Shown here in pieces: positions 795 through 54,899 of a stretch of DNA of 64,000 nucleotides. Below the pieces are notes generated by a model. That model did not search any database and was not told where the DNA came from. It saw only the letters and a program-made list of their open reading frames with translations. Position 1 is the first letter of the stretch. Each line of letters opens with the position of its first letter. This stretch comes from Dudresnaya verticillata (taxonomy: Eukaryota): contig OZ374558.1 in assembly GCA_977862235.1 (NCBI GenBank), forward strand, positions 1,054,001 to 1,118,000. Direction: 5' to 3'. A program made the position numbers and the translations under genes.

Positions 795-1558
795 TGTGGC
801 AGTATGGACGCTGTCAGCAGGAGGGCTTACAAGAACGCACTTCTTTTCGTGGGACAGACTGTCCCTTAATCAGGACAGCTGTCCTTTCATCGCTGTACAC
901 GTGGATGGCATTGGGATACACGTGTGTACACGTGGCCTTACCGCTGTACACGTGTCTTACACGTGGCATTGAAATCACGCCAGTTGGACACCTCGTATTG
1001 GCTGATTTATGACGCGCCGCTGCGCTCCTACTCACGAACGAGGAGCGCCTCTGTGCTCAGGGTATCGACAATGCAGCCGAGACCCTGGCTTAAACACCTG
1101 CGCATCCGCCACCAAGTCCCCTAACTGGAACGCATTCCTCCTTTTTAACTCGTACTGACTGTACTAACCCACGTAACTATAATCATAGACTAACTTAGAC
1201 CCCCTTTCGGGCTGATAGACTTTTCGGCTGTCGAGCCCTCCTTATCAGCGCCGGAATAGCCGGCGCCCTCATAATAAACACTCAGCGGAGTTGTTCGGAA
1301 AGTATTCACCTTTTGGTCGTTCGGACGCTCCGCGCGCGAGACGCGCCTGCAGAGGTCACCCAGTACAGGCCCGGACATCGTACGACACGTACTCTACGAA
1401 ATATCCGGTCGCAACCTCTATATTTTCCCTCAGTCGGTCGCGCCGAGTCTTTCCCATGCGTCCGCACCCCCCTTTCGCGTCATCAGGGTTCGAATCCTTT
1501 CTAGTCCCTACCAAACCTCCTTCGAGCTACCACCCATGAGCGTGTGATATCGGAAATT

Positions 1559-2936: not shown

Positions 2937-2937
2937 C

Positions 2938-2950
2938 TGGTCTCCCGACC
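2938..2950 (+). promoter_or_regulatory. Putative primer-binding site
   Basis: TGGTCTCCCGACC one base after the LTR-terminal CA; priming tRNA not identified. Confidence 0.55.
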
Positions 2951-3007
2951 TAAAACGTGGTCCCGAAGTTTCGCATTTATTCGTAATTCGTTTCTATCCG
3001 AGACACG

Positions 3008-5025
3008 ATGTCTCACGCTCCGAGTCGTCCCGATTCGGCGGTACCGATTCCGGAGCTCCCGTTGTTCGACTCGAACGCGAGTAACCGAGAACCGTTTTCT
3101 CGCACTCGCGCTTCACGAATAATGGTACCCGATCTTCTCACAGACTCGCGTTCGCAGGCTCACGGTACCCAGTCCGACATTTCGTATACGTACACTCCGT
3201 TGGAAATCGTTCCCTCGGATACCGTCGATCGACTCTTCTCGATGAAGGAAGTCTCCGGTGCAGAACTACGTTTACTCTACGAAGAGGTCATCGAGGCGCT
3301 TTCCACTGCGTACCGTATCACGCAGCTCTCCAGCTCTCCATTCGTAATACGCATAATCGAGTTCACACAGAGTTCGACAAATTCCGCGCTGGCAAGGTCC
3401 GTAGGATCGAAGACTCACTCGAGCGTCTCCGGGATCTCGTCTCGGGAGTCAGCAACCAGTTTCTCGTGCTCGAGCGCAACGTATCCGCCCCCGTGGGCAA
3501 GGCGAGTCACTCGCCTCTCGTTCGCAGCTCGCACGCATTCTCGGAGGAACAGTTGAACGCTATTCGTGACATCGTGTCCGCCGCGTTACCGAAGGAAAGG
3601 ACTCGAAGTCGTGAAGATCGTCCCGAAGCCCGTCCTGACCCCCGCAATTAGCCGCTAGTTCAACCCGTGCACGGCCCGGGTGCCCAATCTACGTTACTGA
3701 AAAACATGTATCCGAATCAGTCTTCGCACCCTTTATCGCATCAGGCAACCGATGCCTCCGACAACCCCCGTATCAACCCCGCAGTGTTCCGAGCTTCACT
3801 TCAACCACCGATGTCCCCCGGAGGACCCGTAATCTAAAATCCGTTATCGCTCGCGGGACCCGTGTCATCTTTCTGGCACTGGGGACCGCTCGAGACGGGC
3901 GTCGAACCGATACCGACGCTCATTCCCAAATTCGCACGGGCCGTAAGCTATCGATCGTATCGACTCACGAATTTTTCACCTCGGGATAATCAACACGAAG
4001 TCTTCCGAGGTAACACATCGAAAAACGTTTCGCGCATGCGTTCGATGATGCCGAGACTCGAGAAGTTTACGGGACGCGATCCGATTAAGGTTCTCGCATT
4101 TCTTCGTGATATTCGACAAGCGCTGAACGGAGTCGGGCTCACCGAAGGAGCAGCAGTTCGCACGATCTCGTGGTTCCTCGACGAGACCGCGCTCAATGTG
4201 TATCAACACTATGCCTTCGGAGGCGTTCGTACTGGCAACCCGGTTTGCTGGTCCGCTATCGTGAACGTATTGCTCCAACGATTTCTCACGGAAGACGTAA
4301 TCGCTGACGCACACGATCTCGTGATTACCGCGAAGCAGAAGTCCGAAGAAACTTAGATGGAATTCGCGACTCGTCTACAAGGCTACGCGGATGTCTGCTC
4401 AGGTGTCTACGATGACTCTTCGTTAACGCACCAATCTATTCGTGGACTCCTACCTACTACGTACCCTATCGTGGCCGACCAGGTTCGCCGTTTACCGTTG
4501 TCCGAGCAAAAGAATTTCATGAGCGTACAACGAATCGGGCAAGCCGAAGGTACGACATTCCGAGCTCGCGAACTACGTGACACCGCGGCCCAACAGTCGC
4601 GTGATTCGAAGAACCGAGCGTCCGCTACGTACCCGAAGAGTCGCCAAGCGCCCAGAGGCACGATGCTTATCGAAGCTCGCGACACACCCGGGAGTGAATA
4701 CGAGTACCCGATGAACGAAGATCCGCAAATGGCCGTGATGATGATTCGTTCAGGAACCGGGTCCACATCCGCTACACCGACTACTTCGACAACGGTCTCC
4801 GTGGAAGATACGTTAGATCTCACGAGTCGCATCGAGCGTTTCGTACCCGCACGTGTCCCCCCGATGACCCCGGAGCAAATCGAGATGGCGCGTTCGATGA
4901 TCCCGAAGAACCAGGATGCGTGGCCGTGTTGGTTCTGTCGCGAAATCGGTCACCTGATTTATTCGTGTCCGAATCTCACGAAGGAGCAACAACTCTACTG
5001 CGCGTATCAGAACTATTTCTATTAA
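3008..5025 (+). pseudogene. Gypsy gag with premature stops
   Basis: Capsid-like LEKFTGRDPIKVLAFL...QKSEET*MEFATRLQ and Zn knuckle CWFCREIGHLIYSC (CX2CX4HX4C) near 4925-4968. Confidence 0.82.
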
Positions 5026-5471
5026 CTCGAGACGAGACCGTATACGCGTAATAACTTCGTTAATCGCGGTGTCGCAAAAGGGAATTCGTTCGCGTCCGTT
5101 GATAATCGAGGTCACCGTGGACAAGACTCCCGAGGATCGCGTGACAATCGCGTAAACCGAGATCTTCGTCAAGGCGATACGCGCTACCCGAGGGACCGAG
5201 CCCAACGTCAAGTCAGCTTTGAGCGTCGAGGACCGCCGACCGTCCTCCGCAATCCGAGACACGCGCAGACCCCGGGCCGTCAACCGGTTCTCGCAGTCCG
5301 TTAAAACGTTGACTCGATTGAGCCGAGTCACCCGAACCTGCCCTTGGAGGCTTACGAAGACTCCGCGAATAACGGAAGAGGTGATCGATCAACCCGCCCT
5401 TTGGACGCGGACGCTCGTAATTCGGATTCTAGTTCGAGTTCGGAAAACGAGTAAAGGCGAAGACGCCCGTT

Positions 5472-6344
5472 GTGTCACGTACTTCGTCTGAATCCGTTCC
5501 CCGAGACACTCCGCATATTCCGATTCCGAGAGCCGTTGCGATTCGAAGGAAGCGCGCTGCACGACGACGAGACCGAAAGCGATGTCGCGTCCTCGCGAAA
5601 GCCGCTTCGTGCGAAAACAATTCGAAGAAGATACCGCTCTCGAAGATCGAACCCGAAGTTACCACCGAGGGATACGTTTTCTTGATGACTTCGGAGATCT
5701 TCCTCGTGACCGGATCCATTGGCCTCGATGCCTCCGTAATGACGGCTCAGACGATTTCAGTCGATACGTGTTCCGGTTACAACCTAATAGCCCGGGCTGC
5801 GTTACCCACCGGTTGGGAAGCGAACGCGTCCACGATGGAATCAGCTCCGAGGCTCGCGTCCGCTGATCGCACCCCGTTGCGACTCGATGGTATCGTTTAC
5901 CCGACAGTCCGCCTTGGGAACGTCCGATACCGCTTACCCTTCGTGGTTGCGGAGAAACTCGCAGTCGACGTTCTCCTTGGAACTTCGTGGATGGACGCGC
6001 ATTTACGAAGCATCGAGCTCAGCCCACGGAGGCTCATCACGAAGAGTGGAAGCACGATTCCGATTATCAACCGCATTGCTGGATCGGCTCCGCCCGCTAC
6101 TAATTCGAAAAATCCGAAGCAGAAATTCGAGAAAACGCTATCGAAGCGACATCAACGCGAGCTCCACGACTGGGACCGAGACACCCGTACCATTCGTTTG
6201 AACCGCCGCGTCACCATACCGGGTTATTCGCAAAAGCTAGTCACCGTGACCTCGGAAGCACTCGGACTAATTCATATCGAACCGAATCCTTCGTTACAAC
6301 ACCAACACGGAGTAGGGCTCGGACCCAGCGCAACACGAAGTTGA
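5472..6344 (+). pseudogene. Retropepsin-like aspartic protease, pol truncated after it
   Basis: ISVDTCSGYNLI (DTG-like) and DVLLGTSWM flap/C-terminal motifs; no RT follows. Confidence 0.82.
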
Positions 6345-6645
6345 AATAACCCACGCGGCTCGCGCCCCGTCTCCGTGATCCGCGCGCACACGCGTCGACG
6401 GACGGCGCCGAAGCCCTAACCCGTTCTACGTACGCAAAAATATATTCGTGATTAGCCAATACGAAGGCGCCATCGCACACGTGATCCGAATTCAAATTCG
6501 TAAGCCCCGAGGCACCGCTGCGCGACGACGTGAGCTCGAAGCAATCTCCGCGCCGCCACTCCGATGGCTCCATCCGCGCTCCACCGGAGGAAACCGGGCC
6601 ACGCCAATTCGTGATTCGTAACCCGCGACCGGGACATTCGCTCTT

Positions 6646-6655
6646 GAGGAGGGGG
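6646..6655 (+). promoter_or_regulatory. Polypurine tract
   Basis: GAGGAGGGGG three bases before the 3' LTR start TGTGGTATAG. Confidence 0.75.
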
Positions 6656-6658
6656 CCG

Positions 6659-7481
6659 TGTGGTATAGACGCTATCCGCGAAACGACTGCGTGGTCTACG
6701 TGAAAAAATCGAGAAATACGAAGTTCGAAGTGACTCCGTGAATGCGCACGCCACGATGGCAAACGTATTACAGTGCGCCTACTGTGCGCGCGTCACGATG
6801 GCATTCGCATTACAGCACGCACGTGATACGAAATCGCTGACACCTCCGGACGAATCCCGAGCTGGCTTCGTGATCGCGCGCGCCACGATGGCATTCGCAT
6901 TACAGTGCGCCCCCGATACGAAATCGCTGACACCTTCGTGACTTTCCCGTTTGCTTCCCGCGCGTAAAGGCAACGGGGCCCACGAGACACGCGCACCTCC
7001 GTATGCATCGCTGGCGCACTTCGTAGCCGCCACCATACGTGAGGCGACCATTCGTTGGCACCGAGGCCGTTACGAATCATTCGAGTACGAACCGTCTCCC
7101 GCGTTGACGTGTATTCGTGCTCACGTAGTATTACTTAGCCAGTCGTCTGGCACAACCTCCGAGAGTTTCCGGCAAGCGATTGGCGCCCGGACCTCGGAGT
7201 CTTCGGTAAACGCCTGTTTCTTCGAGTTCGCTGTCTTCGTCTTCGTGACCGCGGATACGGTCGAGCCTCGCTTTGGATAGCCCCGCGCACCCGGAGTCAT
7301 CCCCGGTGATCGATCGCTCGAGTTCTCCCTTCCGCACACGAATACGTTGACACCGTGGTCCTTCGTGTTGGTCGCTCCGCTATCCCACGCTAACACCCCT
7401 TTTCCTTTCTCCGTTAGGCTACGAGGCCATTCCTTACAGTACGAGACTTCCCCGCGTCACCGTGGACTTCGCTATACCACG
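6659..7481 (+). repeat. 3' LTR (family C)
   Basis: TGTGGTATAG...CTATACCAC(G); direct repeat of the 5' LTR; internal ~65-bp tandem unit. Confidence 0.9.
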
Positions 7482-7689
7482 CGCAGGACAGCTGTCTTTT
7501 TCTGTTCTTTTGCTGTTCCTGGCCGGTGCCATACTGCTACAAGAAGGTAGGCAACCAGTGTGTTGTCAAGGTCCTGGATGGCTTCGAACATTTTGTCCAA
7601 GTTGTAGTGCCAGGGGTGGGTCCCTCTTTTCGCTTTGAGCGGGTTGATATCCCCGCGCCCGTGGCGTGAGGAGTTTTCCTCACGCACGG

Positions 7690-8830
7690 AGCAGGGTGAA
7701 AGGTGGGTGAAATTTGTGAAAAAGTCCCGACGGGTGAGTCTCACCTGCCAAATCACCCACCTCACGACGGTGATCACCAACCTCACCCACAACCTCACCC
7801 ACCCGCGCCACAGCAACGCCTCCTGAGCGGTCATGCGTGCACCTTTTTCACGCATACGTCGCAACTGCCCAGCTCGTCTCCCTCCCCACCTTTTTCACGC
7901 ACACGCCGCAACTGCCCAGCTCGCCCCCCGTCCCACCCGCCCTTCGTCACACGCCGTGCCTGTGCCGCGCCTGCCGAGCCCGCACGCCCCGAACGCCCCG
8001 ACCGCCACGCCCTACGTCACACGCCGTGCCTGCGCCGTGCCTGCCGAGCCCGCACGCCCAGTACGCCCCGATCGCCCCGCCCTACACCTACCGCGACGAG
8101 CGGGGTCTCGCTCGGGTGGCATTCTGTATCGGGTTGTGTTGCCTTCTCCCAGGCCTGCTTCGCTCGCCCTGCCTGCCCGCCCCTGCCGCCCTGCGTCGCA
8201 CTCCCCGACCGTCCCGCGTCGCACGCCCAGACCGCCCCACATCGCAATCCCTTCCGCCGGCCGTGACCGCCCCGCCCGTGCTGCCTGCCCTGCTGTGCCG
8301 ACCTAGCACATCTCGCCCCTCCCTGTTCGGCCGTCCTACCCAGCGCCGAGGTTCCACCACGCGGCGCCCGCTCTGCGTCGCCCTCCGTGCCCGCTCACTG
8401 TCCGTCCCGCCCTGCCCATCCCGCCCTGCTGTTGCACCTGCCCGCCGGTCTTGCCCAGAACGGCTCATCAACTTCGCCCCGCAGTCTGTGTGCCCCTACC
8501 GCCCTCCTTTCCCGCCTTGTGACGCCCGCCGTGCCTGCTCTGTGTCGCCATCCTTGCCCGCTCTCCCTGGCCCGCACGCCCCGACCGCCCCGCCCAGCTT
8601 GGAGCCTGAACACCACCGCACTGGCCCACTTCGGAAGCTCAACACCAACCCGGTCGACCCTGCCGCTCCGCGTCGCAATATCTTTCTGTCCGCCTGGCCA
8701 CCTCGCGTCCCACGCCCGCGGGCCTGTTGCTCACCCGGACCACCCCACGTCGCATACTTTCCCTGCCCGGCAACCTCTAGTTGCAAGCCCTTTCTGCCGG
8801 AGCGGCCGTTCCGCCCCGGGGTAGCCGCCA
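7690..8830. repeat. C-rich tract with local tandem duplications (possible subterminal region of another DNA transposon)
   Basis: ~37-bp duplication (7839/7888) and ~70-bp duplication (7947/8017); strong C skew like 28560-29100. Confidence 0.5.
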
Positions 8831-9089
8831 CGGGGTACCCCGTGGGTTGGGATCATCCGGATGCCTGGCCAGGCATGGACTTATACACGCGTATGCTGAC
8901 GCGTCTAAGCGATAGCTGATGATATTGTCTTGGTTGCGATGGGGAGCCGCATATGATTGGTACGACGTGATACTAGCAAGGAATTCCTCGCTTAAGCTGC
9001 AGTTGCCTCGCGCGACGCGATGTGCTCCCCCTCTAAGCGGCGCGTTTAGATGTTATTGGACTGTTGACTACGCCTACGGCTACTGCGTG

Positions 9090-10012
9090 TACGAGCAGGT
9101 CTCGTCCCCGGGGACGGAACAGCTGTCAAGTTTTGATCGTCTTGTGAATCTGGAAACATCTTACGACGAACTTTTGCGTCGAACTGAGCTCTCTCGTTTA
9201 AAGTCCACCGAGGGCGGACTTCAAACGCCTTGGGCGGTAACAGGGAAAACAAGAGAACAAAAGGGAAAAGGAGGGCAGAGAGAAACACGTCGTGTACGCA
9301 GTGCGGACGCGGAAGCGCGGTAGGTCAGACGCTTAGCGAGTAGGTACGCGTAGCGCGAGAAGGGTAGGCTGGATCAGGGCCGGCTTGCCGGGAGTTTACC
9401 TCAACGTCTGGGACGGATCAACTAAGTATAGAACTACCTAGCGGCGGTGGTGCGTGCGCGAGCGCCGCGCGGGAACTCGGGACACGTTTTGTCCCGAGGC
9501 GCGTCTGACAGATCCGTCCGTCATGCAGCCGCGTTTGACAGATCACGCGTAGCTCACCGCTCGAGTCCTTACACGTACACGTGGATGTACTTCCTTACAG
9601 CCGCACGCGTCCTGTGGAGCGTGCGATCTCGATCCGTACTAATCCCGATCCAATCCGGATTCGGGCCAACCATGCGGATGCGCCAGGCTTACAGGCGCGT
9701 GCCTTACACCTCTTGATCCCGATGTCTGATCTCGATGCTGGATCCCGATTAGATCCGGATCCGGGCCACGCTTACAGCGAACGTTCCCGCCACTGTGCCA
9801 TGCGCGCACTCGCGGCGCCGTACAGTGCTGCGGAGTCGGGCGTGCGGTCTGTACGCCAAATGAGCCGTTCTGGCCCGGGTGGCCAGCGGCATGCGTCGGT
9901 GACGTGTTTGCGCCGCGGGCGGGTTGAGGGCGCCGTTGGCGGTCGCCCGTCGGTAGACGCGGACATATCAACCCGATGAAAGCGAAATCGGGGAACCCTC
10001 CCTGGCACTACA
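9090..10012 (-). repeat. LTR family A copy
   Basis: Starts TGTAGTGCCAGGG on the minus strand at 10012; alignable to 43312-43790 (same strand) and to 10648-11701 and 48260-48757 (opposite strand). Left boundary approximate. Confidence 0.75.
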
Positions 10013-10029
10013 GTCTGCACCACACATGT

Positions 10030-13000
10030 CAGCCACATGGGACAGGAAGAAAAGAATTCGTCAGTCCCAAGTGGAGCTTTGAGTATATTTGTGCCCTCTC
10101 CATATGATTGGGACACATTGCATGGGTACAGAGCACGGGAGATAGAAGACGGCTCGGAAGGCCACCAGATCCTGCACTTCGCCGGATTGAGGTCGAGACC
10201 CCGGGAACGGACAGCGTTTGTGGCGTTGGAGTCGAGGTATTCTAACATACGTACGAGATGTCTGCGCGGACCCACTGCGTAGCCATCGTCCAGATAAAAG
10301 GCCAGAAGTGCTAGTGGCTCATTGCCATTGTCCTGATGGCTGCCCGAACTGTGTGCGGCTCCATTGATCGAATCATGTGTAGTCTCTGCGAGGACTACTA
10401 GGACCAGCTCGAAGACAACCGAGAGGAGAAGTGACTCCAGAGGATCGCCCTGCTGAACCCCTAGGACACTCAGGAGCAGGTGTCTGTCGTACCATAGGTT
10501 GGCGGGAGCTCTTGCATTGCAGTACTCTACCCATGCTGCCAGGTCCGGGAACGTTTCTCTGACTCCTCTGAAAAAGGCAGACCGACTGACCAGATTGAAC
10601 GCGTTCGAAAAGTCGACCTTGAGTAGCGCCACCTGATTTGAGCTCTTTGTAGTGCAAGGGGGGTGAGCCTCTTTTTCGCTCGGAGCGTGCTGTGGTGCAA
10701 GGGGGTGAGCCCCTTTTTGCGCTCAGAGCGTGCCATAAGACGTCTACCGACGGGCAATCGTAACCGCCGCTGGCGCGCGCGAACACGTCACGGACGGTCG
10801 GCCCAACGGCGTACGGACGCCACAACCGCCGCCGGGCATGGCGGTTCAAGCAATGTACGCCCGCGCGGCACGCATCCGGATCGCCCATCGGGATCCGGGA
10901 GGTATAAGGCGTGTACCTGTAATGATGGCCCAGATCCTGATGGGATCTGGATCGGACATCGGGATCAGATCGGGATCCGGTACAATGTAAGGCGTGCGCC
11001 TGTAAGGCACACCCACGCGCCAACAATGCTGGCAGGGATCGGGATCCGAATCTCGATCACCTCTACCGACGTGCGGACGCGGCTGTAGGCTACTCATTAC
11101 GCGCGCGCACGTCTGTAAGCTACTCCATACCCGCGGGTACGCGGCTGCATGGCGACGACGACTTGTGAGACGCACGGGGGCGCGACACGCGTCCCGAGTT
11201 CCCGCGCGCCACGCCGCGCCGGCGCAGCCCGCGTCATAGCGATAGTATATTAGGTATCCCGTCTGGGACGTTGAATAAACCCCGGCAAGCCGGTCTGCCT
11301 TCACAATTCGCCCTTCGCTCGTTAGCGTCACTGCCGCTACCCACTTTGGCTACGCGTTGCGACGATCGCGCTTCCGCGTCAATGTCCGTCTTTGACTTGT
11401 ATCCCCTTTTGTTTTCCCTCCGAGAAGCTCGGTGGTTCTTCACCCCCAGCGCTCAAGAGCGGACATCACCGCTGTTAGCCTGGGCTACGTGCCGGACTAC
11501 GACGCACTCATCCACTCCTTCGTGGACGTGTGTTTCCTTCTTTTCCATTTCTACCGCCTCGGGCGTTTACAGTCCGCCCTTGGCATGTTACCAGACTCCA
11601 CCCCCGTCTACCGCCCTCGGCACTCATCCGCCAGAGGCGAGCTACCGGCCGGACTACGAAAGGCCCTGACAGCATTTCCGTCCTAGACGTTTTGCACTAC
11701 ACTCTTATCTCTCACAGTAAGGGTTCTGAGAGAGTGGAATATTGTTTCGCAGCCACCTGGTGAGGACACGCCGAGTTGCAGTGGCGCGAAGTAATCTCGC
11801 GCATCTTTGGAAACGCGCGACATTAAACACGAGCCCACAAGTCGACGCAATGTTTCTCCAACGGCTATGGGGCGTATGTCTCCATTAGGTTTCTCAAGGC
11901 CTGTCAGCGGTGCTCCAGCGATCCATGGTGCAAGCGAGGGCGGCGCACAGCCCTCTACGAGCAGGTTGACAACTCTTGTGAGACGTGCTGCGAACGGGGT
12001 GGCTGAGTCCGGGTTGGGAGCTGCCAACAGCTCTGTGAGGTGATTTGTTTGAATCCCACTCCTCCTCCAGCTGACGCAGTAGAAAAGCGCTGCACGGCCG
12101 CGCTGACGTCCGCGACGCTAAACTGTGCGGCTGTAGGTTGTGGTGTGTCGGGGCAGATCGCTTCCGTCTCGGCTGGGGCGACAGCGTGAACCGGGTGTTT
12201 AGATCGCAGACTATGTGCTCATCAGTTGCAGTGGGTATTCCAGCTGGCATCAAGGCCTTTGCTTCTTTTCCAAATGCACTTTCTCATGCCAGAGAGACAG
12301 ACCGACGGGCGTTGGCGGTCGTCTGTGACTCTGGAGATACGGGAAGTCGGCCGTGGGTCGGCGCAGCCGATCCGAGCGCGATTCCCCAAAGATCCATGTA
12401 TTGCCCAGTTTCCCAAAGGCGTAGGTGGGACCGGATAAACTTCACCCTCGAACAGCCAATTTTTGTTCGCATTTACTTTGTAGGCTGTGTCAAAATGGCC
12501 TTGAGGAAGAGCAAAAGCTTTGTGAACCCCTGTACGCTGTCGCATGCCAATGGATCGCGCTGAAGCTTCCAGAACAATTGTCCCAGTGCCCTTGCAACCG
12601 CTCCTCTGACTCGAAACGGTATATGCTTGAGTATCGCGATTCGTGTTCGGCATATCTCGCCGAACATTGGTAGCATAGGGGACGTGTTGGTTCTTGAGTT
12701 GCAGGTGGATTCAGCGGCGGCGGTGGAGCGGGTGGGGTGCTGTCTGGAACAGGCACTACATTTCCGTCGGGGATGTGTGTTAGGACGTCTGCTGCGAAGT
12801 CTTCTGGGGGCTGTGAAACTGGGAAGAATCGGGGTCTCCTCGACGGGCGGACCGCACCAGGTGGGCAATATATGCAAGCCTTGTAGGTGAGCTGAACGGA
12901 CGACCCGGGCCTTTGGATACGACTCGTGTTCCGTTGAATGTGCGATGGGGTACGCAGAAGTGTTACTCGTGCTGGTGTGTCCAGTTTGTCATGGTTGAAA

Positions 13001-13386
13001 CGGCCGACGCGGACAAGACACCCCCGCACGCTCCGCAAATATGCTTGCCCTTCAAGTGGGCGAGGCAGACAGTGACAGCACCGATTGTGCGCGCCTGGCG
13101 CCACCGACCACGGGTCGGGCATCCAACGGGGGAAGGCGAGCGGGCGCAGTATAGACCGTGGGACCCGGCGGGGTGGGTAGTTGGGCGGCAGCGGCAACAG
13201 CAACGACCCTGCCACCGGGCGGCAAAGGTCGAGGCGGGCTTGCGGGAACGGGTGCAGAAACAGCCCCTCGGCAGGTCCGCCAAGGGCGCGATAGGGTCCC
13301 GGGAGCGGCAACGGCAACCGATCCTCGGCGGGGCCGCAGGGGCCGGGGCGTTGTGAGGATGCCGGGGTGGGCATGGGGAGGTGCAA
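10030..13386 (-). pseudogene. N-terminal and RT part of CRE copy 1 ORF
   Basis: RT motifs in ORFs 11683-12027 and 9772-10632; several frameshifts; interrupted by 10648-11701. Confidence 0.88.
10648..11701 (+). mobile_element. 1054-bp solo LTR (family A)
   Basis: Perfect 10-bp inverted ends TGTAGTGCAA/TTGCACTACA; perfect TSD CTCTT (10643-10647, 11702-11706). Removing it restores TVRDKSSNQVALLKVDF in frame. Confidence 0.92.
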
Positions 13387-13510
13387 TCTCGGAGGTCAAC
13401 CGTGTTAAAAAACGGGAGGAAAATAAACAAAACACGCTCGCACTCGCGTCGCCTGCGACGCTCGAACCGATTCGTCACCTATAACGGTGAGCGGGAGTGT
13501 TTTGAGAGAG

Positions 13511-16029
13511 TTTGTTTGGCTTTACTGGGTTCCTTAGTGAATGCGAGACGGCGTATTGTTTAGGGCTAGTATTCTTGCAGCACCTGTTTGTGCAGAAAAG
13601 ACAAATTCATATGTGTACAGTTCTGTCAGAACTTAACCAACGACGCTTGCGAGTAGGTACGCGGTATTGCGCTTGACGAGAACTGCAGCGAGGTGAGAGA
13701 AGCATTTGCTCCGCGACGTCGAGCGTGTTTCGTTGAAACGAGAAGCTCAAGCGTCCGCGATGCTTCTGAAGTACTGCCTGGCCATACCTATCCAGCCTCC
13801 AGTGGTCTGTATGGCAATTAGCAGAAGGATGTCCCCGTCCCCCAGGTCTTCTAAAATAGGGGCATGGTGCGTGGCTTTCCCAGCTGCGGCCAGCTTCAGT
13901 GTCTGGTCCGGGGAGACGGCTGAGGCGTCAACGCGCGCAGTGGTCAGCGGATGGACGACAACGACATCCAGCAATACATGGTTGCCCTGATTACCCAGGG
14001 CGCAGATGTCAGGTCGCGTCCTGTGTGAGCTGCCGATATCCCTTGGTTCGACAATGGGGTGCCGGGCGGCTTCAGACAGCCTTGACGCCGCCGCTTGAAC
14101 AATAGTGTCGTGACGATTGATTCGCACGGGTCCATAACGGCATACAAGAGCGTGGTTTCCGTAGATGTCCATCTCCTCATTGCACCCAGCCCGACCACAT
14201 CTCTCCCGCGGGTTGAACAGAGGGGTGCAGCAGTGGGATTTTAGCCATGTTCTAAACTCCCGGCGGGTTATGTGGGTGTGAAAGGCCAGGCAAGGGGCAG
14301 TTTAGCCAATCCTTTCCGCCGGGGAGACCGATGCACTTGCGCATTGCTATTGTACGTACATCGCCAGGAGGTAGACGCTCGGCAATCCCAGCGTGCGCTG
14401 CAGTAGTGAGTTCTCGTTGAGAAGGGAAGTGACTATGAGCCCAAGAGGACAGATTGCCCAGCTTCGTATGATCATCACTCCCGCATAGTTGTTCCCATTG
14501 GCTGTAGGCAGCTGAAATGTCCTCAGTCGGAAACGGCACATGGTTTGCGTTGCGGAGCAAACGGGCAAGACGACAGCGCGTTTGCAATATAGACGCCATG
14601 TAGGCGCACGGCGAGAGCGTGACAGTCGAGGAGAGGCCGATACCAACTGTGGACTTTGTTTTGTTGGGTGCACGCACAGGAAGCTGTAGCTCCTTCCACA
14701 AAACGGGGGAGAGCGTTTCATCCATGATGTTACAGACACGCTGGGCCATCTGTGAGTCCAGCAACTCACAACCGTCCTGCACCAGTCGAGGTGGTAGTAA
14801 ACGCAGTAGGTACATAACCCTACTAGTCCCATAGCAGTATCGAAGTATATTGTACGCCACTTGCACGTCTTCGAGGTCTGCCACGGCTTCAAAAAGCTCT
14901 TTCATACCCGCGACGTGTTATGAAAGAAGTTCTTGACAAACGCGTCACTTCTCAACGGTTCATTGAGTACTTTGGTTCCTTCGTCGTACTGTTGGCTTAC
15001 GTTGTCAGGATAAAGTTGACTGTCGGCTTGGGACGGGCTCGTGGGCCACCGCACAGAGCACTTTTCCATATTAAGGTCCAGACCTTTGCGACGGACATCA
15101 TCGGAATCCAAGTACCGCAGTAGCTGTGCTAGAAGATGATGGGGGCCAACAGCGTATCCATCATCAAGGTAAAAGGCCAAAAGCGAGAGGGGTATGGCGT
15201 GATGGGAGCCCGATGCGTCGTTTGGAATTCCAGACGCACTATAACGCATCAGCATATCTTCCAGTTCTTTCAGCACTGGCTGCAACACTATTGAAAATAA
15301 CAGTGGACCAAGGCGGTCTCCCTGCTGTACACCGAGGACACTCAGTAAGAGGTGTCTGTCGTACCAGAGGTTCGCGGGCATAGTTGCATAGCAGTATTCA
15401 ATCCATGAAGATACCTCTGGAAAGTGTTCGCAGACCTCCGAAAAGAATGCGGAACGGCTAACGATGTTGACAGCGTTGGTGAGGTCGACTTTGAGCATGG
15501 CGAGGTGAGGTGACGTACCCTTTGAAGTCACAAGGTTTTGAAGAGCGTGGAAAATAGTCTCACAGCCGGCCGGAGCTGAAACACCGAGCTGTAGGAGCGA
15601 GAAAAAGGCTTCTGCATCTTTCGAAACTGGTGTCATTAGGCAAGAACCCACTAAACGTTGTATGGTCTCCCCAACCGCAATCGGACGAATGTCGCCACCC
15701 GGTTTTGCAAGGCGTGTGAGAGGAGCTCCTGCGAGGCATGGTGTGAGAGAGAGGGGGCGTTTCCAGCTGCAAGGATGTTCACAAGGTGAACCAAGCCTTG
15801 TAAAAACGGGTGTTCAGCGTCCGAGTTCGGGGCTGAAAGAAGCTCCGCTGGGTGGTTTGGGCGTAGATCGCTGCCCCCCTCCGCGGCGGCGGATGAAAAA
15901 CGCTGCACAGCTGCGCGAATGTGCTCGTCTGCAAAAGAAGCACCCATGGGTTGCGGTTGATTCGGAACAACCGGTGTAGTGGTAGTAGGTGATGTGGTCT
16001 CGCTTGGGTGTTTGTTCCTCATCCAATTG
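13511..16029 (-). mobile_element. CRE-clade non-LTR retrotransposon, copy 2, 5'-truncated
   Basis: RT (LKVDLTNAVN, GVQQGD, FYLDDG) and RLE (HALVC..RHD..RPDI..LDVVV..GK) in frameshifted ORFs; begins abruptly just before RT. Confidence 0.9.
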
Positions 16030-16043
16030 GCGTTTTAAGGGAG

Positions 16044-19000
16044 TTTGTTTTGTTTACTGGGTTCCTCAGAATGGATTGGGGGCATGTTGTCTCGGAAGAA
16101 TGTTTGCGTGACACTTGTTTGTGTCAAAAGAAAGCAGCTGGGCATGTCCAACGTTCCCTTACAGCTTATCCCACCACGCTTGCAAGCAGGCACGCCGCGT
16201 TGCGCTTAGCAAGCACTGCGGCGAGGTGAGAGAAGCATTTCTTTCGCGAAGTTGAGCGTGTTTCGTTGAAACGAGACGCACGCGAGTCCACGATGCTTCT
16301 GAAGTACTGACGTGCCATTGTCGACCAGCCCCCCGTGGTCTGTATAGCAAGCGGCAGCAGTGTATATCCGTCCCCTAGGTCGGCTAGGAGTGGGGCTTGG
16401 TGCGTGGCTTTCCCAGCCGCAGCGAGCTTCAAAGTCTGGTCCGGGAAACCGCTGTGGCGTCAACGCGCGCAGTAGTCAGTGGGTGAAGCACGACGTCATC
16501 AACCAGGACGTGATTGCCCTGGGCGCCCACAGCCGCGATGTCAGGTCGCGTTCTGTGTGTACCTCCCGTGTCCCTCGGTTCAACTATGGGATGCCGGGCG
16601 GCTTCGGACAGCCTTGACGCAGCTGTTTGGACGATGGCGTCGTGACGACTGATTCTAGCCGGTCCGTGAGGGCAAACCAGAGCGTGGTCGCCGTACACGT
16701 CCATCTCCTCATGGCATCCAGACCTGCCACAAACTCCCGCGAGTTGAACAGAGGGGAGCAGCAGTGGAATTTAAGCCATGTTCGAAACTCGCGGGGGAGA
16801 TGTGGGACTGGAAAGCCAGGCATGGGGAGCAGTTGAGCCAGTCCTTAGCACCGGGGATGCCGAGGCACTTTCGCATAGCGACTGTAGGGATGTCCCCGGG
16901 AGGTAACCGTTCTGCAATGCCCGTGTGAGCTGCAGCGGTGAGTTCGCGTTTGGAAGGGAAGTCACCTTCTTCCCAAGATGATAGATTTCCGAGCTTGGAG
17001 CGATCTGCGCTGCCGCATAGCTGTTCCCAGTTCCTGAAGGCATTCAGCATATCGACCGTTGCCAAAGTGACCGGAGTAGAAATTCCGAATACCAGGGAAA
17101 CACGCGGACGTGTTTGCATGATAGACGCCATGTAGGCACAAGGTGACAGTGTCACCGCGGAAGATAGGCCAATTCCCAGGGTTGGTTTGGTTTTGCTGGG
17201 AGCACGCACAGGCAATTGTAACTCCCTCCACAAGTCTGGGGAAAGGGTCCCATCCAAAATATTGCGTACACACTGGGACATAAGTTGGTCCAAAACACGC
17301 ATCCGTGTTGCACCAGACGAGGAGGGAGCAGCCGCAGCAAGTACATTACTTTGTTCGTTCCATAGCAGAATCGAAGTATATTGTAGGCCACTTGAACATC
17401 CTCGAGGTTTTCCACAGCATGAAAAAGACACTCCATACCACGAACGTGGTCAAGGAAGAACACCTTCACAAATGAGTCACTTCCTAGCGGCGCATTTAGC
17501 ACTGTTGTTCCCTCTGCGTAAGATTGCTTGACATGTTCTGGATAGAGGCCTCTGTCTGCATCGCACGGACGTGTCGGCCACCACACAGAGCATTTTGCCA
17601 GATTCAGATTCAGACCCTTGCGCCGAACGGCATCGGAATCGAGATAGTGCAGCAGCTTGACGAGTAGCTCATGAGTGCCGACAGCCATCATCTCGATAGA
17701 ACTAATAGTGTGAGAGCTGTGGCTTCAGGAGTGCTGGAGGAGTCCTGGGTACTTGCAGAGCAGTCATGATCGGGCATTAGCATGTCTTTCAAAGCGCGAA
17801 GCCCCGGCTGCAGTACTACGGCAAACAGAAGGGGACCGAGTGGGTCACCCTGCTGGACACCTAGGACACTCAGGAGGGGGTGCCTGTCGTACCATAGTTT
17901 CGCTGGTGCAGTCGCGTAGCAATATTCCACCCATGCGGCCAACTCCGGAAAATGATCACGGACTTCACTAAAGAACGATGAGCGGCTGACGAGGTTAAAA
18001 GCATTTGAGAAGTCAACCTTAAGCAACGCCACGTGCGATGACGCCCCTTTGACGTCCACCAGGTTCTGTAGAGCGTGAAAGATTGTTTCACAGCCAGCTG
18101 GGGCGGAAACGCCAAACTGCAGCGGCGAGAAAAGTGTTTCTGCCTCTTTTGAAACGCGTGTCACGAGGCAGGACCCAACTAAGCGACGCAACGTTTCCCC
18201 AACCGCTATCGGCCGCACATCTCCTCCTGGTTTGGCAAGGCCAGTGAGGGGAGCTCCAGCCAGCCAAGGAGCAAGGGACGGAGGAGCCTGACCTGCTGCA
18301 AGGATGTTCACGACATGAACCAGTCCATGCGAAAAAGGGTTTGCGGCGTCTGGATTCGGGGCCGAAAGAAGCTCCGCAATATGATTTGGGCGAAGGCCCC
18401 TGCCACCTGCCGCGGCCGCAGATGAGAATCGCTGCACGGCCGCACGGACGTGCTCTTCTGTGAAAACAGCGCCCATGGGTTGCGGTTGATTCGCAACAAC
18501 CGGTGTTGTGGTAGCAGGTGATGTGGCCTCGCTCGGGTGTTTGGCCCTCATCAAATTGGCGCGAGCATCTGTAGCGGGGGGGATTGCCTCCGCCGTTAGG
18601 GCCCTTGCAGCTTTGCCAAAGGCTCCTTCGCGAGCGTAGGAAACGGCACGCCGTGCGTGGATTGCCCGGCGTGTGAAAGAGGAGGCCCCAGCGTTGGCGA
18701 ACGGCGGGATAAGTGCATCGTCTAGCGCGTTTTTCCAGAGGGCCGTATATCGTCCTTCGTTCCAGAGTTGCAGTCGTTCGCGGATGATTTGCGCTGTAGA
18801 ACACCCAGGCCTTCTCCGCGCTTGTTTGGAGGGTTGGGCGAGGACACACTGTGGGAACAATAGGATCTTCGTAAAGACCTCTACGCTTGTTGCTGCTGAT
18901 GGGCGTGAGGGGGCGGCCCAGAAAAGCCGACCAAGCGCACGTGCGACAGCCCCTCTCGTTCTGAATAGAATATGTTTCAGAACACCCACCCTCGTGCGAC

Positions 19001-19950
19001 AGATGTCTTCCAATGATGGAAGCGATGCGGTAACACGGCCTGCAGTCGGTGGGGGTGATGGCGGGGAAGGGGGCGAAGAGTCTGGGGCCAGCCGGGGGTA
19101 TCTTCGGCGGGGGCAGGGGGGCTGTGTTGAACTGCGAGTCATGTGGCGGTACGAAGTCCGGAACTCCATCCACCGGCGGGCAGTGCGCACATCCCTTGTA
19201 TGAGAGTTTGACAGACTCCCCCGGGCCATTGGCGATGACTCTAGCCCCATTAAATGTGCGATGTGCTGCACAGTAATGGTAGCCATGTGTACGAGCCCAT
19301 TCAGACATTATCGTAACGTCAGCCTCGGAGAGCGACCCGGCCCGCGCCTTCCGGACATGTTTGTTCTTGAGATAGGCCAGGCAGACATTTACTGCCCCGA
19401 AGAGGCGTGTGGAACACTCCGGGAAGGGACAGCGGCCACCCACGACGGGACGGATGTCTAGTGGGAGGAGGCGAGCCGGGGCGATGTAGAAAGCGTTTCC
19501 CGGCGGGGTCACCGGAGTCCTGGTGGAGCCGTTAATAGCCGCGCGGCATGCGGCTGCTTCGGGCGTGGATGCGCAGCGCGCGGCCTTGGCGCTCGAGTCG
19601 GTCCGGCTTGAAGTTGTAGGGTGCGAGGCCGCCGGGAGCGGAGCCGCAGGGCGCGGCCGCAGGGTACGCACCGGGCTCGCGCTCGGGACCACATGCACCG
19701 AGGGCGCCGAGCCTAAGGAAGCCGGGCGGGAGGCTGCTGGGCGCGGGCAAGGGCGCAGAATACGGGTGGATGGGGCGACGAAGGCGGCGTCTGTGTGCGC
19801 ATCGCGGAAGGAGATGGGCAGATCTGCCGATTTTAAATTTGAAAGGTTTTTGGGGGGAAGGCTCCGCCGTCGCACTCGCGTCGAACCGACGCTCAGACCG
19901 ATTCGTCACCTATAACGGTGTGCGGGGGAGAGCCTAGAGAGATAGAGAGA
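16044..19950 (-). mobile_element. CRE-clade non-LTR retrotransposon, copy 3, near full length (~3.9 kb)
   Basis: Single ancestral ORF ~19875-16166: C2H2-like CPFPEC..CLAYLKNKH, RT (VRPIAVGETLRRL, LKVDFSNAFN, GVQQGDPLGPLLF), Zn knuckle and RPD-type RLE; frameshifted. Confidence 0.92.
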
Positions 19951-20668
19951 GCGTTTTGAGGGAGAGAAAGAGAGAGAGAGGGAAATTTTACATATCGACG
20001 ACGATTGGTGGCTAAAGATTGGTAGCGCAGCGAGTGAGAGATAAAGCGGACAGTCATGAACGCCCGAAGAACGTTTCGCACCTGAGGTGCCGATGTGGGC
20101 TCGCGGTGCGATATTGGGCCACGGCCCGCTATTACATTTTGAAACTCGCTGGCCACTTGTACAACGCATGGCTGTGTGAGCTCGTCCAGCTACTGCCAGG
20201 CGCGAGCAAAGACAGACGAAGAAAAGCACAACGTAGTCCGTTTCGCACTTGTCGCCAGGTCATACGCCTGCGCCCCTTCGTCAGTAAAGTTCTATTTTCT
20301 TCTACCTTCTCTCCCTACCGCTACAGTGCGGTACAGAAGTGTTACACGACTATCCGGATTCGTATCGACACTTCCGTGTAGATGGCTTTTATAGAGAGGT
20401 CTGTAACACACTCAACAACGACTGTGGACGACCGACTACTTTCGCACTTTATATTAAACACGTGTTCCTAAACAGGGCTTCTGTTTAAAAACGCAAACGT
20501 TTCTTATCTTAATCTTGAGGTCCGAGCCGATCAATTCAAAGATCAATCCGCTCGTCTTTCCGGATTCCAGAGCGCCAAAATCGCTGACATTGACGTCAGC
20601 GGGAGCAATTTTGCGGAAGAATGAGCCACAGCAGAGTGTCAGCGAACTGTAAGACAAGTCTGCGTATC

Positions 20669-24237: not shown

Positions 24238-24289
24238 AGCCCGTGAGAACAAAGGAATTCCGTCGTATTTCCACGTCAGGTGAACTACT

Positions 24290-24902
24290 CAGACTCAATG
24301 ACAGACCGTGAAGCTGGAACTGCCCGCGCAATGTTTCTATCAGTATCACACCGACGCAGCCCTCCGACTACGCCGATCTGGTTAACCACCAGCTTGCTGC
24401 TGGGTTGGTTGGCCGTAAGCAATTGTGGCCCCGGTCAAGCCTCGTTTTGCCTTCCGAGATTGGTTACTTCAAACCTGAGACAACGCTCTTCTTCGAAATC
24501 TATAAGAAGGATCGTCGCAACGCCAAGGAATTGGAATACGTCCACTCCGCAGGTTGTTGGATTGAACAAGCTTTGGGTGCTCTGTCTTTACTGGAAGGGT
24601 AACTCAGCCCTGATAAGGAAGGGCGTCTATTGGGACTCCTTCAAGAAAGTCTACAGGGTGCACAAGAGGTACTGTCTATTCGTACCACACACTTCCAGAC
24701 AGTTCTTACGAAGGGCCAAAGCCACGCTAACACCATCGCGGATCTCGCCGAGACGAGGGTGGAAGCCAAACGTTATCAGATCCCATCTGAGGCGTATGCT
24801 GACGTTTATGCTGAATTGTCAGCCAAGTATGTTATCGAAACTGCTAAACGTCTGGCTCGCGACGCTACCGGCGGTGGCAAGAGGCCGGACAAGAAGGAGT
24901 AA
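24290..24902 (+). pseudogene. gag-like ORF1 of the YR element (broken)
   Basis: Frames 24405-24602 and 24630-24902 directly upstream of and overlapping RT; called by position only. Confidence 0.5.
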
Positions 24903-26549
24903 TGTCACGGGACATCTCCAATGTGCCTGCCTCTTGGCGCCAAGCTCGATGGGCAGGTACGCAACGCAATGCAGAGGCATGGGAAGAAATTGGCGCTTCC
25001 GCATTTGTTGTTCGCGGTCTTCGTTATGGCGTTTGGATCCCCCGCAACGTCCATTTACGCAGGGCCGAGAACTGGCCCATATACCTCAGACACCGGAAGA
25101 CCTCGAGTTTGGCCTGAAGGAACTAGAAGAGGGTTGTCTGGTTGGAACTTATCAGTTGGTGGGCTCCTTATATGCACAAGAACGAATGCGTACTGGTTGC
25201 ATCGTTTCAAGTGCGTTCGTAACTTGGCAGAAGGGAAAGCCGCGCTTTATCATCATCTTAAGGGAACAAAGTACTCACTGGGACAAGAAGTCAGCCAAGA
25301 TGGAGACTCTCTCCTCATTTGGTGGCTTGCTGTGCCAAAACGACAGACTTTTGTCGTTCGATTGGTCTTCTGGTTATCTTCACGTTCATCTACATCCCAA
25401 CATGAGGGACTGGTTTCTCTTCAAATACCACGGCCACTATTACAGATGTATTGCTTTGCCCTTCGGGTGGACTGCCTCTCCCTATTGATTTATCAAGATT
25501 CTCAGTCCTCTCACGAGGTTTATGAGACGCGAGTTGATGTTAAGAGTCCTTGTTTGGTTGGACGACTGCCTAATTGCCCCCGGCGACGGCTCGTATCCAA
25601 GCTCGGCACAGGACTGTCTTCAGGCATCCGGGACATTAGATCGACTGTTCCATCGGCTTGGAATGGTCCGTCATCCTGGTAAAGGTGTGTGGAATAGCGG
25701 CAGTACTCAACTCGAACACCTGGGCCTTGTCATAGACACAGAAGCCTTTCGATATTTCGTGTCACCTTCAAAACTCCAAGACCTGCGCGGAATGGCCAGC
25801 AAACTACTGCATACAGCCCGACAACGCAGTCGCTGGGTGCGCGAGGCAGTTTTAATCAGCTTTTGCGGGCGTGCTGTCTCGCAGTTGATTCCCGTGCCTC
25901 TGGCTCGCTTCTTTACGAGGAGCCCCTACGATGCATTTAAAGCGACTGCTACTCGCCGAGGACGCTATCCCCAGCAAACCGTGAGGCTATCTCATGCCGC
26001 TGTTCGAGATTTACAATCATGGGCTACGATGCTAGCGGGGGACGGACGCCTAATTGCCGGCGGGAAGCCTTCCTGGTCCCTTCACACGGATGCGGCCGAC
26101 GTCGGGTACGGCGGAACTTTAGGAAAGGACTTATCGGCGCACCCGGCGAAGTTTCCGTCCAAGGTAGGTGGTCACTTTTCCTAAGGTTGAAGTCTATTAC
26201 TTACTGGGAGCTGGTAGCCGTAATGAAGGCCCTGGAAAGCGATCTAGTCCGGTCCCGCTTATCTTCCGACAAATCCCTCTCGCTTCTCCACGTGGACAAC
26301 CTAGCGGTGTATCATATTGTATCCAACATGGTGTCCGCGAACCCGGCCTTAATGGACGAGCTCCGTCGTGTACACCACCTCCTCGTCCAAATGAAAGTCG
26401 AAATCCGGGCCTCTTGGCTCCCCTTAGCCCTCAACAAGCACGCAGACCTAATCAGTCGGTCTTGGAATCCGCGAGGCCTCCTGGCGACGCCATTATTGCT
26501 CAAGTCCGTCGAAACCTCGCTCCAATTGCAGCACGTGCGTCGATTATAG
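24900..26549 (+). pseudogene. DIRS-type reverse transcriptase + RNase H
   Basis: KPRFII, LSFDWSSGYLH, ALPFGWTASP, LVWLDDCL, HLGLVIDT; RNaseH LHTDAADVGYGG, ITYWELVAV, HVDN, NKHADLISR. Stop at 25486-25488 and a frameshift near 26150. Confidence 0.92.
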
Positions 26550-26930
26550 CCACTAGGTGAGGCACCCGCCGCTCGCCGCAAGGTTATCATGGCACAGTTC
26601 GAAGAAACATGGGGAGACAGCCACAGTAGGTTATGGAATCCTCCAACTCCTTGGATACAATCTACGCTACTGAAAATACAGGCGGAGCGAGCCCACGGAA
26701 TCATCGTGGTTCCGAACTGGACAGGAGCACCTTGGTACGCGAAGTTGCGGCAGCTCTCCCTCGACTCACGCGTGATCCCACCCGGAGACCATCAACCGCC
26801 CCTCACCTCCGCGTATGCCAACCCATCATGGGAACTTCTTCTCACTGAGGTGGGATATCGACCACTGGACTCATCCAACGGCGCATCGCCTCTCCTGTCC
26901 CTCAGTCTGCCGCTGGCCGCGCAACAGTGA
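26550..26930 (+). pseudogene. DIRS-associated Dam-like adenine methyltransferase domain
   Basis: RLWNPPTPWIQSTLLKIQAERAHGIIVVPNWTGAPWY fits the NPPW..l.Ki......lvvP.W...W pattern that follows RNaseH in DIRS/PAT elements. Confidence 0.8.
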
Positions 26931-27877
26931 GGCTTGCTCCACACTGTGTATCATCCTCTACAGATCTCACAAAGACAAGCCAATGGAACAAATTCCTCCG
27001 TTACTGCGCTGGTGAGTTCCTATCGTCATTGCCAGCCGCGCAAGGGACCGTTCTGTCCTATATCGGCCACTTGTTTGATGAAAACAGAGTCCATGGGAAC
27101 TCAGCCGACCACTACATCTCCGCTATACGTACCCGACATCTCCGTGAAGGTTATCCGGACCCATTTTCTGGCACCCACTGTGCGGACCTCGTTCGATCCT
27201 TTAAGTCTCAGGATGACCGTCGCGGTGTTCTACTGGATGTTCGAGCCGCAATTCCAGCTTCGGTTATTAGAAGGATTCACGACCTGGGACTAAGATCAGC
27301 AGACGGCTCTGTAATACGCCATCAAGCTACCATGGTAGAGTTCCAATATTTGCTGTCTTGGAGAGAAGGTTCCGTGCGAACTGTTCACGTTGAAGATGTT
27401 GTCGTCCAAAGTGGCGGCCTATGTGACCATCAAGTGGTACAGCAGAACCTTTTGACACTTTCTGTCCGTCCTCGCACGCTTAAAGGACGGAATGTTCGAG
27501 GCGTTGAGCCATCCTGTCTGACTTGCCGCCACGGAAACATCAACGCCTTCTCTGATAATCCTCTAGCCCTTCAACAACACTATTGGACCCAGCGAGTCGA
27601 ACATGGCCTTCGATCGGACCAGTACTGGAACCATCCGCGACTTGTCCTACGTCCTCAAGTTGTTTCAGAAGCCCTCGCTGCCTGTCTTGCTGTAATGCAA
27701 ATTGTGCCGCCAGCACTCTGTTCTTACACGTCTCACAGCTTGCGAAGTGGGAGTGTCACTGCCCAAGTTCTTTTGAACGTACCACTAGCCCGCACTACAC
27801 ATAGGGTGGCTGGCGAGACGGCACAATGGTTATTAACGTGTAATTTGACTCCCGTTTACACATATCTATGGAAATGA
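26927..27877 (+). CDS. Tyrosine recombinase of the YR element (C-terminus probably frameshifted)
   Basis: N-terminal WNKFLRYC..LPA..TVLSYIGHL, catalytic R (SWREGSV), YTSHSLRSG (HxxR). Confidence 0.85.
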   Translation: MRLAPHCVSSSTDLTKTSQWNKFLRYCAGEFLSSLPAAQGTVLSYIGHLFDENRVHGNSADHYISAIRTRHLREGYPDPFSGTHCADLVRSFKSQDDRRGVLLDVRAAIPASVIRRIHDLGLRSADGSVIRHQATMVEFQYLLSWREGSVRTVHVEDVVVQSGGLCDHQVVQQNLLTLSVRPRTLKGRNVRGVEPSCLTCRHGNINAFSDNPLALQQHYWTQRVEHGLRSDQYWNHPRLVLRPQVVSEALAACLAVMQIVPPALCSYTSHSLRSGSVTAQVLLNVPLARTTHRVAGETAQWLLTCNLTPVYTYLWK

Positions 27878-52914: not shown

Positions 52915-52922
52915 TTTGGAGA

Positions 52923-54560: not shown

Positions 54561-54899
54561 CTTGGGGCTTCCTACCGATGCGCGCTTGCTACTGTAACGC
54601 CGCTTCGCTATGCCGCTCGCCGTTGTCGATGGAAACGCGTTGCCAGGACGCCTACCGTCACCCCCGATCATCCCCGTCGCGGTTCCTCGCCCGGCCCTCC
54701 TCGGCGTCTGGTCCCGGCTGCTCGCCACGCGTGGGGGCGTGCTCGTGGCTCCTCGTTGGCCGCGGCAGCAGTGGTACCAAACCGCGGCCGCTCTGGCCCC
54801 CCGGGTTCCCTTGGGGCTGCAGCTCACCCCTCCGTGGCCGACCGTTGGTTTCAGGTTCGCCGGGCTGCCCAGCGCCGCTGGCAGGCAGACGGTACGGAT

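Follow-up and report, generated by a model that had tools for sequence, protein, structure and literature searches.

Three diverged RLE-type retrotransposon copies joined head to tail at a recurring 14-bp motif in Dudresnaya verticillata

Three head-to-tail copies and their junctions

The DNA analysed here (the window) is a stretch of 64,000 nucleotides from contig OZ374558.1 of Dudresnaya verticillata (assembly GCA_977862235.1, positions 1,054,001 to 1,118,000), repeat-rich and eukaryotic, with 55% GC and no CpG depletion. Self-BLAST, tblastx and profile searches find in it three minus-strand copies, lying head to tail, of one kind of retrotransposon without long terminal repeats (non-LTR), which combines a reverse transcriptase (RT) with a restriction-like endonuclease (RLE), and a 14-bp motif recurs at three junctions. 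A reading made from the sequence alone had already proposed three copies in one orientation, the second truncated at its 5′ end, and had placed the three 14-mers; both the arrangement and the positions hold and are listed here, with motif letters on the element strand and the junctions named Ja, Jb and Jc.

16044–19950, minus strand: copy 3, a near full-length retrotransposon with RT, CCHC knuckle and RLE in one open reading frame (ORF)
13511–16032, minus strand: copy 2, 5′-truncated, starting ahead of the RT at the copy 3 equivalent of position 18561
11702–13496, minus strand: copy 1, 5′ piece, with the intact 5′ end, the N-terminal region and the start of the RT
10038–10647, minus strand: copy 1, middle piece, RT
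1–857, minus strand: copy 1, 3′ piece, reaching the start of the RLE and leaving the window
19951–19964, minus strand: junction motif Ja, CTCCCTCAAAACGC, the 5′ flank of copy 3 and the target-site duplication (TSD) partner of Jb (13/14)
16030–16043, minus strand: junction motif Jb, CTCCCTTAAAACGC, the seam between the copy 3 tail and copy 2, its final 3 bases being microhomology with the copy 2 ORF
13497–13510, minus strand: junction motif Jc, CTCTCTCAAAACAC, the seam between the copy 2 tail and copy 1, by position copy 1's own 5′ end
16044–16066, minus strand: 3′ terminus of copy 3, AGGAACCCAGTAAA box and A-rich tail
13511–13534, minus strand: 3′ terminus of copy 2, AGGAACCCAGTAAA box (14/14 match) and A-rich tail

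The copies match the RVT_1 domain, and copies 2 and 3 carry at the C-terminus a CCHC knuckle and an RHD-E-RPD-D endonuclease, which in the copy 2 frame read C-X4-C-X9-H-X3-C-X8-RHD-X19-E-X10-RPD-X13-D. The copies are colinear with single-ORF homologues of ≈1070–1300 amino acids (at best 45% identity), and the best matches in the Protein Data Bank are R2 (E 7e-17) and then L1 (1.5e-4). The elements belong to the R2 group of RLE non-LTR retrotransposons; the narrower label CRE, a putative one, rests on RT signature motifs. The catalytic spacing, RHD-X19-E-X10-RPD-X13-D, fits the SLACS/CRE spacing quoted in PMC12857005, while the knuckle spacers (4, 9, 3 and 8, against 1–3, 7–8, 3–4 and 9–10 in the same source) are off by one at three places. 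A C-X4-C...H pattern, visible by eye in the 5′ frame of copy 3 and a candidate for the N-terminal zinc-finger-like motif of CRE elements, gave no Pfam match; a similarity search with the RLE part had no match at E 0.001, and a protein-cluster search with window protein P0002 returned only RVT_1 clusters without names.

The related loci collected number 128 (646,641 bases): 80 from metagenomes, kept out of at least 430 confirmed among the 600 pattern matches listed, one viral and 47 from genome contigs. Loci L082–L128 are eukaryote-type RLE retrotransposons in contigs of prokaryotic genome records, most likely through host contamination. A tree of 151 rows (99 of the 128 loci, 50 of 121 proteins, and copies 2 and 3), made up of unnamed relatives together with plant and sponge-type database proteins, places copies 2 and 3 inside a 20-row clade of sequences without names (SH-aLRT 100).

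Copies 2 and 3 are 74% identical in DNA (1856/2499 columns), and copy 1 is 65–71% identical to either. Between copies 2 and 3 the differences at codon positions 1, 2 and 3 are 0.19, 0.11 and 0.50, and synonymous and nonsynonymous divergence over 746 codons are dS 1.36 and dN 0.16 (dN/dS 0.12); between copies 1 and 3 the synonymous sites are saturated, with a proportion of differences (pS) of 0.77 over 655 codons. The three copies represent distinct families that diverged under purifying selection, and the codon-biased pattern implies that they did so as active families before meeting at this locus. It also rules out a recent or neutral tandem duplication, in agreement with the sequence-only reading, which had called the copies too diverged for one.

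The third-position bias likewise excludes duplication followed by neutral decay, and we give next to no credence to the broader alternative that the array is an old tandem duplication, or else an internalised telomere-type array with a decayed telomere-like unit, CCCTYAAAA. A telomeric origin would suit the C-rich side lying on the element strand, as at FoTeR junctions (PMC12857005), and the resemblance of Cnl1 TSDs to a telomere seed (PMC12810828), but the window contains no telomere-like array and at least 44 kb of other DNA lie beyond Ja, the 5′-most junction (judged without the host's own telomere repeat sequence), and Jc has CTCT, not CCCT.

Decay differs among the copies. Stop codons number 4 in 708 codons in copy 1 (all pieces together), 1 in 731 in copy 2 and 0 in 935 aligned codons in copy 3, and private changes at 102 columns conserved among 60 of 120 homologues (the first 60 of 940–1350 amino acids) number 10, 6 and 1. 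Copy 2 has 3 frameshifts; over the stretch that the two have in common, copy 3 has about 6 small indels. Copy 1, which is interrupted twice and leaves the window ≈550 bases short of its 3′ end, is the only one with nested insertions, and is probably the oldest.

The junction motif and a proposed serial insertion

The tails of copies 2 and 3 are A-rich but C-interrupted, 12–13 bases long including the last AAA of the AGGAACCCAGTAAA box, and not pure poly(A). Because the motif follows this tail, which itself follows a box conserved at 14/14, the motif lies beyond a natural 3′ end. In the self-BLAST, the 3′ ends of copies 3 and 2 run on colinearly into Jb and Jc, so that the motif copies at 16030 and 13497 are not mutually independent and, by themselves, would also fit element termini. 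This does not hold for Ja. Over the 200 bases upstream of it, comparison with the two 3′ untranslated regions (UTRs) gives scores of 16 and 19, with shuffle means of 18–19 (the two UTRs score 86 against each other as a positive control), and a match as good as Ja is rare in local shuffles, as given below, which together argue that Ja is not an element terminus. The motif is therefore not just the 3′ end of the element, an outcome on which the sequence-only reading had made its proposal depend: upstream of 19951 there is no 3′-UTR similarity. A fourth copy ending upstream of Ja is rejected on the same ground, and an insertion of copy 3 into the middle of copy 2 is rejected as well, no second 5′ half being present anywhere in the window.

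Across the 64 kb, the degenerate pattern GYGTTTTRAGRGAG has 3 exact matches, all at the junctions (0.01 expected; 0 of 100 shuffles reach 3), and 4 matches when one mismatch is allowed (0.15 expected), counts that overstate the significance because the pattern was derived from the three sites themselves. The fair test concerns Ja, the one motif copy beyond 3′-end homology: when the local CT-rich 100 bases are dinucleotide-shuffled 100,000 times, a match to the 16030 copy with at most one mismatch turns up 36 times, and for the local 64 bases 43 times in as many shuffles. The extra one-mismatch match, at 62856–62869, lies away from any junction and, not being at an element seam, is rejected as a fourth one. 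This 13/14 match stands 40 bases before a remote RLE-like remnant (62909–63703, plus strand, independent E-value 4e-5), on the opposite strand and at chance level.

Among the 14 bases, Ja and Jb differ at 1, Ja and Jc at 2, and Jb and Jc at 3, and the variants fit ((Ja,Jb),Jc) with no homoplasy needed. The 13/14 identity of Ja and Jb begins and ends exactly at the 14 bases bounding copy 3, which is thus enclosed by a classical TSD; around copy 2 the duplicate is 11/14. These relations bear on whether the motif, or its CT half, instead belongs to the 3′ end of the element RNA and pairs there with a similar target sequence, Jb and Jc being element termini and Ja the only true target present. Encoding of this kind would account for the colinearity of Jb and Jc with the two 3′ ends and for their 3/14 differences, and an annealing model has been proposed for MoTeR (PMC3636483). 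We nevertheless consider it quite unlikely, since Ja is nearer to Jb than Jb is to Jc, the limits of the duplicate are sharp and TSD-like, and the A-rich tail comes ahead of the motif; insertion directed by sequence would still be implied.

The reading that we prefer, with a probability of roughly 0.6, is that three families inserted in turn at one re-used site, by way of a TSD regenerated at the 5′ end of the earlier copy. Target-primed reverse transcription would have brought each copy into one and the same CT/AAAAC site, located at the previous copy's 5′ boundary, and each insertion likely re-created the site as an 11–14 bp TSD, which would imply an endonuclease specific for it. Copy 1 would have come first, (CT)n-CAAAACAC-block forming its 5′ end; for copy 2, priming would have occurred 6 bases upstream of CAAAAC, with synthesis ending prematurely and a CGC microhomology serving for the join; copy 3 would then have used the regenerated upstream copy of the site and duplicated 14 bp, including the CGC supplied by copy 2. 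The last three bases of Jb (CGC) are also copy 2's own ORF sequence, and Ja has CGC where Jc has CAC, as expected, on one base of evidence, if Ja was copied from Jb after the arrival of copy 2. Repeated insertion of different subfamilies at one target, as first proposed, stands in part: the families are distinct and a site with TSD-like anatomy was re-used, one that may be a host target or the element's own leader (see below).

The same microhomology admits another account, in which a single chimeric cDNA brought in copies 3 and 2: the RT would have left copy 2 RNA early and crossed through CGC to the 3′ end of copy 3 RNA, so that Ja and Jc would be the TSD of the pair. The three bases at Jb and the inseparable ages of copies 2 and 3 would allow it, and Ja and Jc have 12/14 bases in common as well as the following 2. 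It requires, however, that two families as far apart as these (dS 1.36) were co-active and that copy 3 RNA already ended in the motif; moreover, Ja fits Jb better than Jc, and the abutment on copy 1's 5′ end is left unexplained. We judge it very unlikely.

Several points weigh against serial insertion as we describe it. All of the evidence comes from one locus, and the 3′ flank of copy 1 lies outside the window. The flanks of copy 2 differ at 3/14 bases, close to the 26% divergence of the families, as would suit an element-encoded motif. In the 128 related loci the motif has 0 exact matches, although these loci are remote (29–49% identity). As to age, the larger private-change count of copy 1 partly reflects a longer branch, copy 3 has more frameshifting gaps than copy 2 in the part they share (6 vs 3, with one compensating pair and one in-frame gap set aside), and the arrival of copy 2 before copy 3 is only suggested by 8 vs 2 private changes (117 columns), which leaves room for a template jump.

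The 5′ end of the element and the nature of the target

At the two intact 5′ ends, those of copies 1 and 3, a conserved block lies next to the junction motif or to a CT-rich leader.

19965–19984, minus strand: CT-rich tract directly upstream of Ja, either target context or the original leader of copy 1
19927–19950, minus strand: CT-rich 5′ leader of copy 3, with the 5′ arm (19929–19935) of a predicted outer stem whose partner is 19859–19865
19870–19926, minus strand: conserved 5′ block of copy 3, a predicted multi-hairpin
13438–13495, minus strand: conserved block at the 5′ end of copy 1, with 88% identity to that of copy 3
13428–13435, minus strand: GTGTTTTG within copy 1, exactly complementary to one half of Jc (CAAAACAC)

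This identity of 88% over a 58-nt block is found despite saturated synonymous sites. Differences within the block fall mostly in a predicted loop, and the outer stems are wholly different in the two copies, yet both pair; both copies have a TGA in the block, immediately behind which the conserved reading frame begins, with no ATG close by. Upstream of the block an ungapped alignment puts Jc (CTCTCT-CAAAACAC) in the place of the copy 3 leader (CTCTCT-AGGCTCTC). CAAAACAC and AGGCTCTC would form the 5′ arms of the predicted outer stems, the 3′ arms being GTGTTTTG in copy 1 and GGAGCCT in copy 3. By chance, a perfect complement of 8 bases would fall within ten positions with a probability of ≈1e-4, although this was noticed post hoc. 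On the element strand the 5′ ends fold with weak z-scores (−2.0 and −1.1), which leaves the RNA structure a prediction only. Jc, judged by its position and its predicted pairing, is part of copy 1's 5′ end. The initial argument that the motif is not simply 5′ sequence of the element does not hold up in this respect, given the ungapped alignment of Jc with the copy 3 leader and the complementarity of half of Jc, CAAAACAC, to sequence inside copy 1.

The 58-nt block as part of a long TSD is rejected, because its differences gather in loops and its outer stems are unlike in the two copies. A 5′ ribozyme of hammerhead or HDV-like (hepatitis delta virus) type is rejected too: there is no CTGANGA core at the intact 5′ ends of copies 1 and 3, no HDV-like threading common to both (by a relaxed descriptor) and no Rfam ribozyme match to the block. 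A 24-mer of the block has no exact match in the metagenome contigs scanned.

The site is either the element's own leader, which would make the insertion self-targeting, or a host target long co-transcribed by the copy 1 family; the target may accordingly be a CT tract or the front of the element itself, and not a host gene. A tRNA or Rfam-known RNA gene as the target is rejected: the Rfam scans of junction regions had nothing under E 0.3, and those of the window nothing under E 1. Nor was an array of spliced-leader (SL) genes found at the junctions, as judged from Rfam-known SL only and from the self-BLAST, which finds no repeated gene unit between the copies. The 3′ box with the motif has no exact match in the viral contigs scanned. 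With mismatches, the motif has 1 one-mismatch and 25 two-mismatch matches in the related loci, the latter at no consistent position relative to element ends, and the three loci that fall in the window's clade (L004, L007 and L013) include no recognisable element end. In the literature examined, the motif is not among the targets described (SL genes, rDNA, U2, tRNA genes, telomeres, microsatellites), and no paper on such a target was found by titles and abstract openings, motif letters, supplements and Repbase lying outside that search. Provisionally, we regard the target as undescribed.

The CT-rich setting raises the question of whether the lineage prefers (CT)n/(GA)n tracts generally, so that stacking is a by-product of CT-rich leaders and CAAAAC merely copy 1's 5′ sequence caught in TSDs. 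The richest CT tract of the window is the one that holds Ja, the two intact 5′ ends are CT-rich as well, and TC-targeting is known for Kibi elements of the apurinic/apyrimidinic endonuclease (APE) type (PMC3812793). A simple repeat lies at most 450 bases from the stop codon in 23 of the 55 related loci with a readable 3′ flank; five loci (L001, L003, L016, L018 and L080) finish in (GA)n, and L047 has an A-tail plus (TC)n at its end. The repeat-ended loci placed in the tree fall in other clades, however, the strand sense in the (GA)n group is the opposite one, and the joins of copies 2 and 3 fall at the same base, 6 before YAAAAC, despite ≈26 bases of CT tract, so that we consider a general tract preference unlikely. 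The (GA)n-ended loci are themselves RLE elements in metagenome contigs, with differing 3′ UTRs, and possibly represent a GA-microsatellite-targeting lineage; L001, L003 and L016 share one well-supported clade, while L018 and L080 lie outside the tree sample.

More tentatively still than serial insertion itself, and as something we would not presume, the nucleotide-precise target could be the structured CT-rich 5′ end of sister families within this CRE-like RLE lineage. Such a target would be a self-regenerating safe harbour, independent of SL genes, rDNA and telomeres, and would have been kept across synonymously saturated families, with one arm of the predicted 5′ RNA stem as the recognised sequence.

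Other features of the window comprise the insertions into copy 1 and further repeats.

10648–11701, strand not assigned: nested insertion in copy 1, with TG...CA ends, 10-bp inverted termini and a 5-bp TSD, CTCTT
858–10037, strand not assigned: nested 9.2-kb block of other repeats in copy 1, with TGGGACAG at both bounds

The first is solo-LTR-like and lies within the RT of copy 1. Nested in copy 1 are also 556-bp direct repeats (1564–2119 and 6666–7221, 96.6% identical), and the frames between them have weak zinc-knuckle and aspartyl-protease matches. Elsewhere, two DIRS-like retroelement remnants (24247–27877 and 52361–55385, plus strand) have RVT_1 matches, with RNase H-like and tyrosine-recombinase-like motifs by eye; a frame with an N6/N4 DNA methylase domain (32522–33460, plus strand; PF01555, E 1.5e-6), for which one homologue was found (47% identical), stands among repeats; and a DUF7869 frame (38118–39047, minus strand, E 1e-39) is probably part of another mobile element.

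Relation to known systems

Stacking by insertion into a regenerated TSD is a known mechanism, so that the architecture by itself is nothing unusual; novelty may lie in the target and in how it overlaps the predicted structured 5′ end of the element. A short site that is neither rDNA, SL nor telomeric and is common to three RLE families would lengthen the small list of RLE specificities, which are interesting as gene-insertion tools. If the specific target is real, CTCYCTYAAAAC is expected after most A-rich tails, together with a matching 5′ TSD. The conserved 58-nt block is a second lead, whether as promoter, in RNA processing or as a translation start.

Of the elements compared here, R1 carries an APE endonuclease and Zepp is L1-type. 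Tandem R1 copies in Drosophila 28S rDNA lie head to tail, separated by one 14-bp TSD; new copies enter the TSD at the earlier copy's 5′ end, and truncated copies show microhomologies of 1–5 bases (PMC2718515). All three traits have their counterpart in the reading preferred here, and double insertion in general has the same anatomy as this array (10.1101/158386). Unlike R1 with its rDNA target, however, the present elements have an RLE and no rRNA match, and three families 65–74% identical stand at one site.

The trypanosomatid elements CRE1/2, SLACS and CZAR resemble the present elements in their single ORF, with RT and a C-terminal CCHC and RHD-E-RPD-D RLE, in their A-rich 3′ end and in their TSD (PMC12278014, PMC3636483), but they are described from SL RNA genes, whereas no SL-like gene or repeat unit is seen here; in addition, the tail is here C-interrupted and the knuckle spacing off by one at three places. 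MoTeR and FoTeR likewise build mixed head-to-tail arrays of full-length and 5′-truncated copies with a short target unit at every junction (PMC7367193, PMC12857005). Theirs is the telomere repeat at chromosome ends, while the present array is interstitial and without a repeat tract.

Zepp of Coccomyxa forms self-clustered non-LTR copies away from genes, but these are nested in one another, whereas here they lie end to end with a common motif (PMC3446292). Cnl1 of Cryptococcus, an RLE-type element, is reported to insert into its own copies and build arrays, with a TSD of 0–13 bp and a precise specificity stated as undefined (PMC12810828, PMC9942834). Its arrays, as described there, are subtelomeric and of one family, in contrast to three old families at a nucleotide-precise 5′-end site. 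Should that site prove to be the element's own 5′ end, it would provide a nucleotide-level handle on self-insertion, which is undefined for Cnl1 (PMC12810828).

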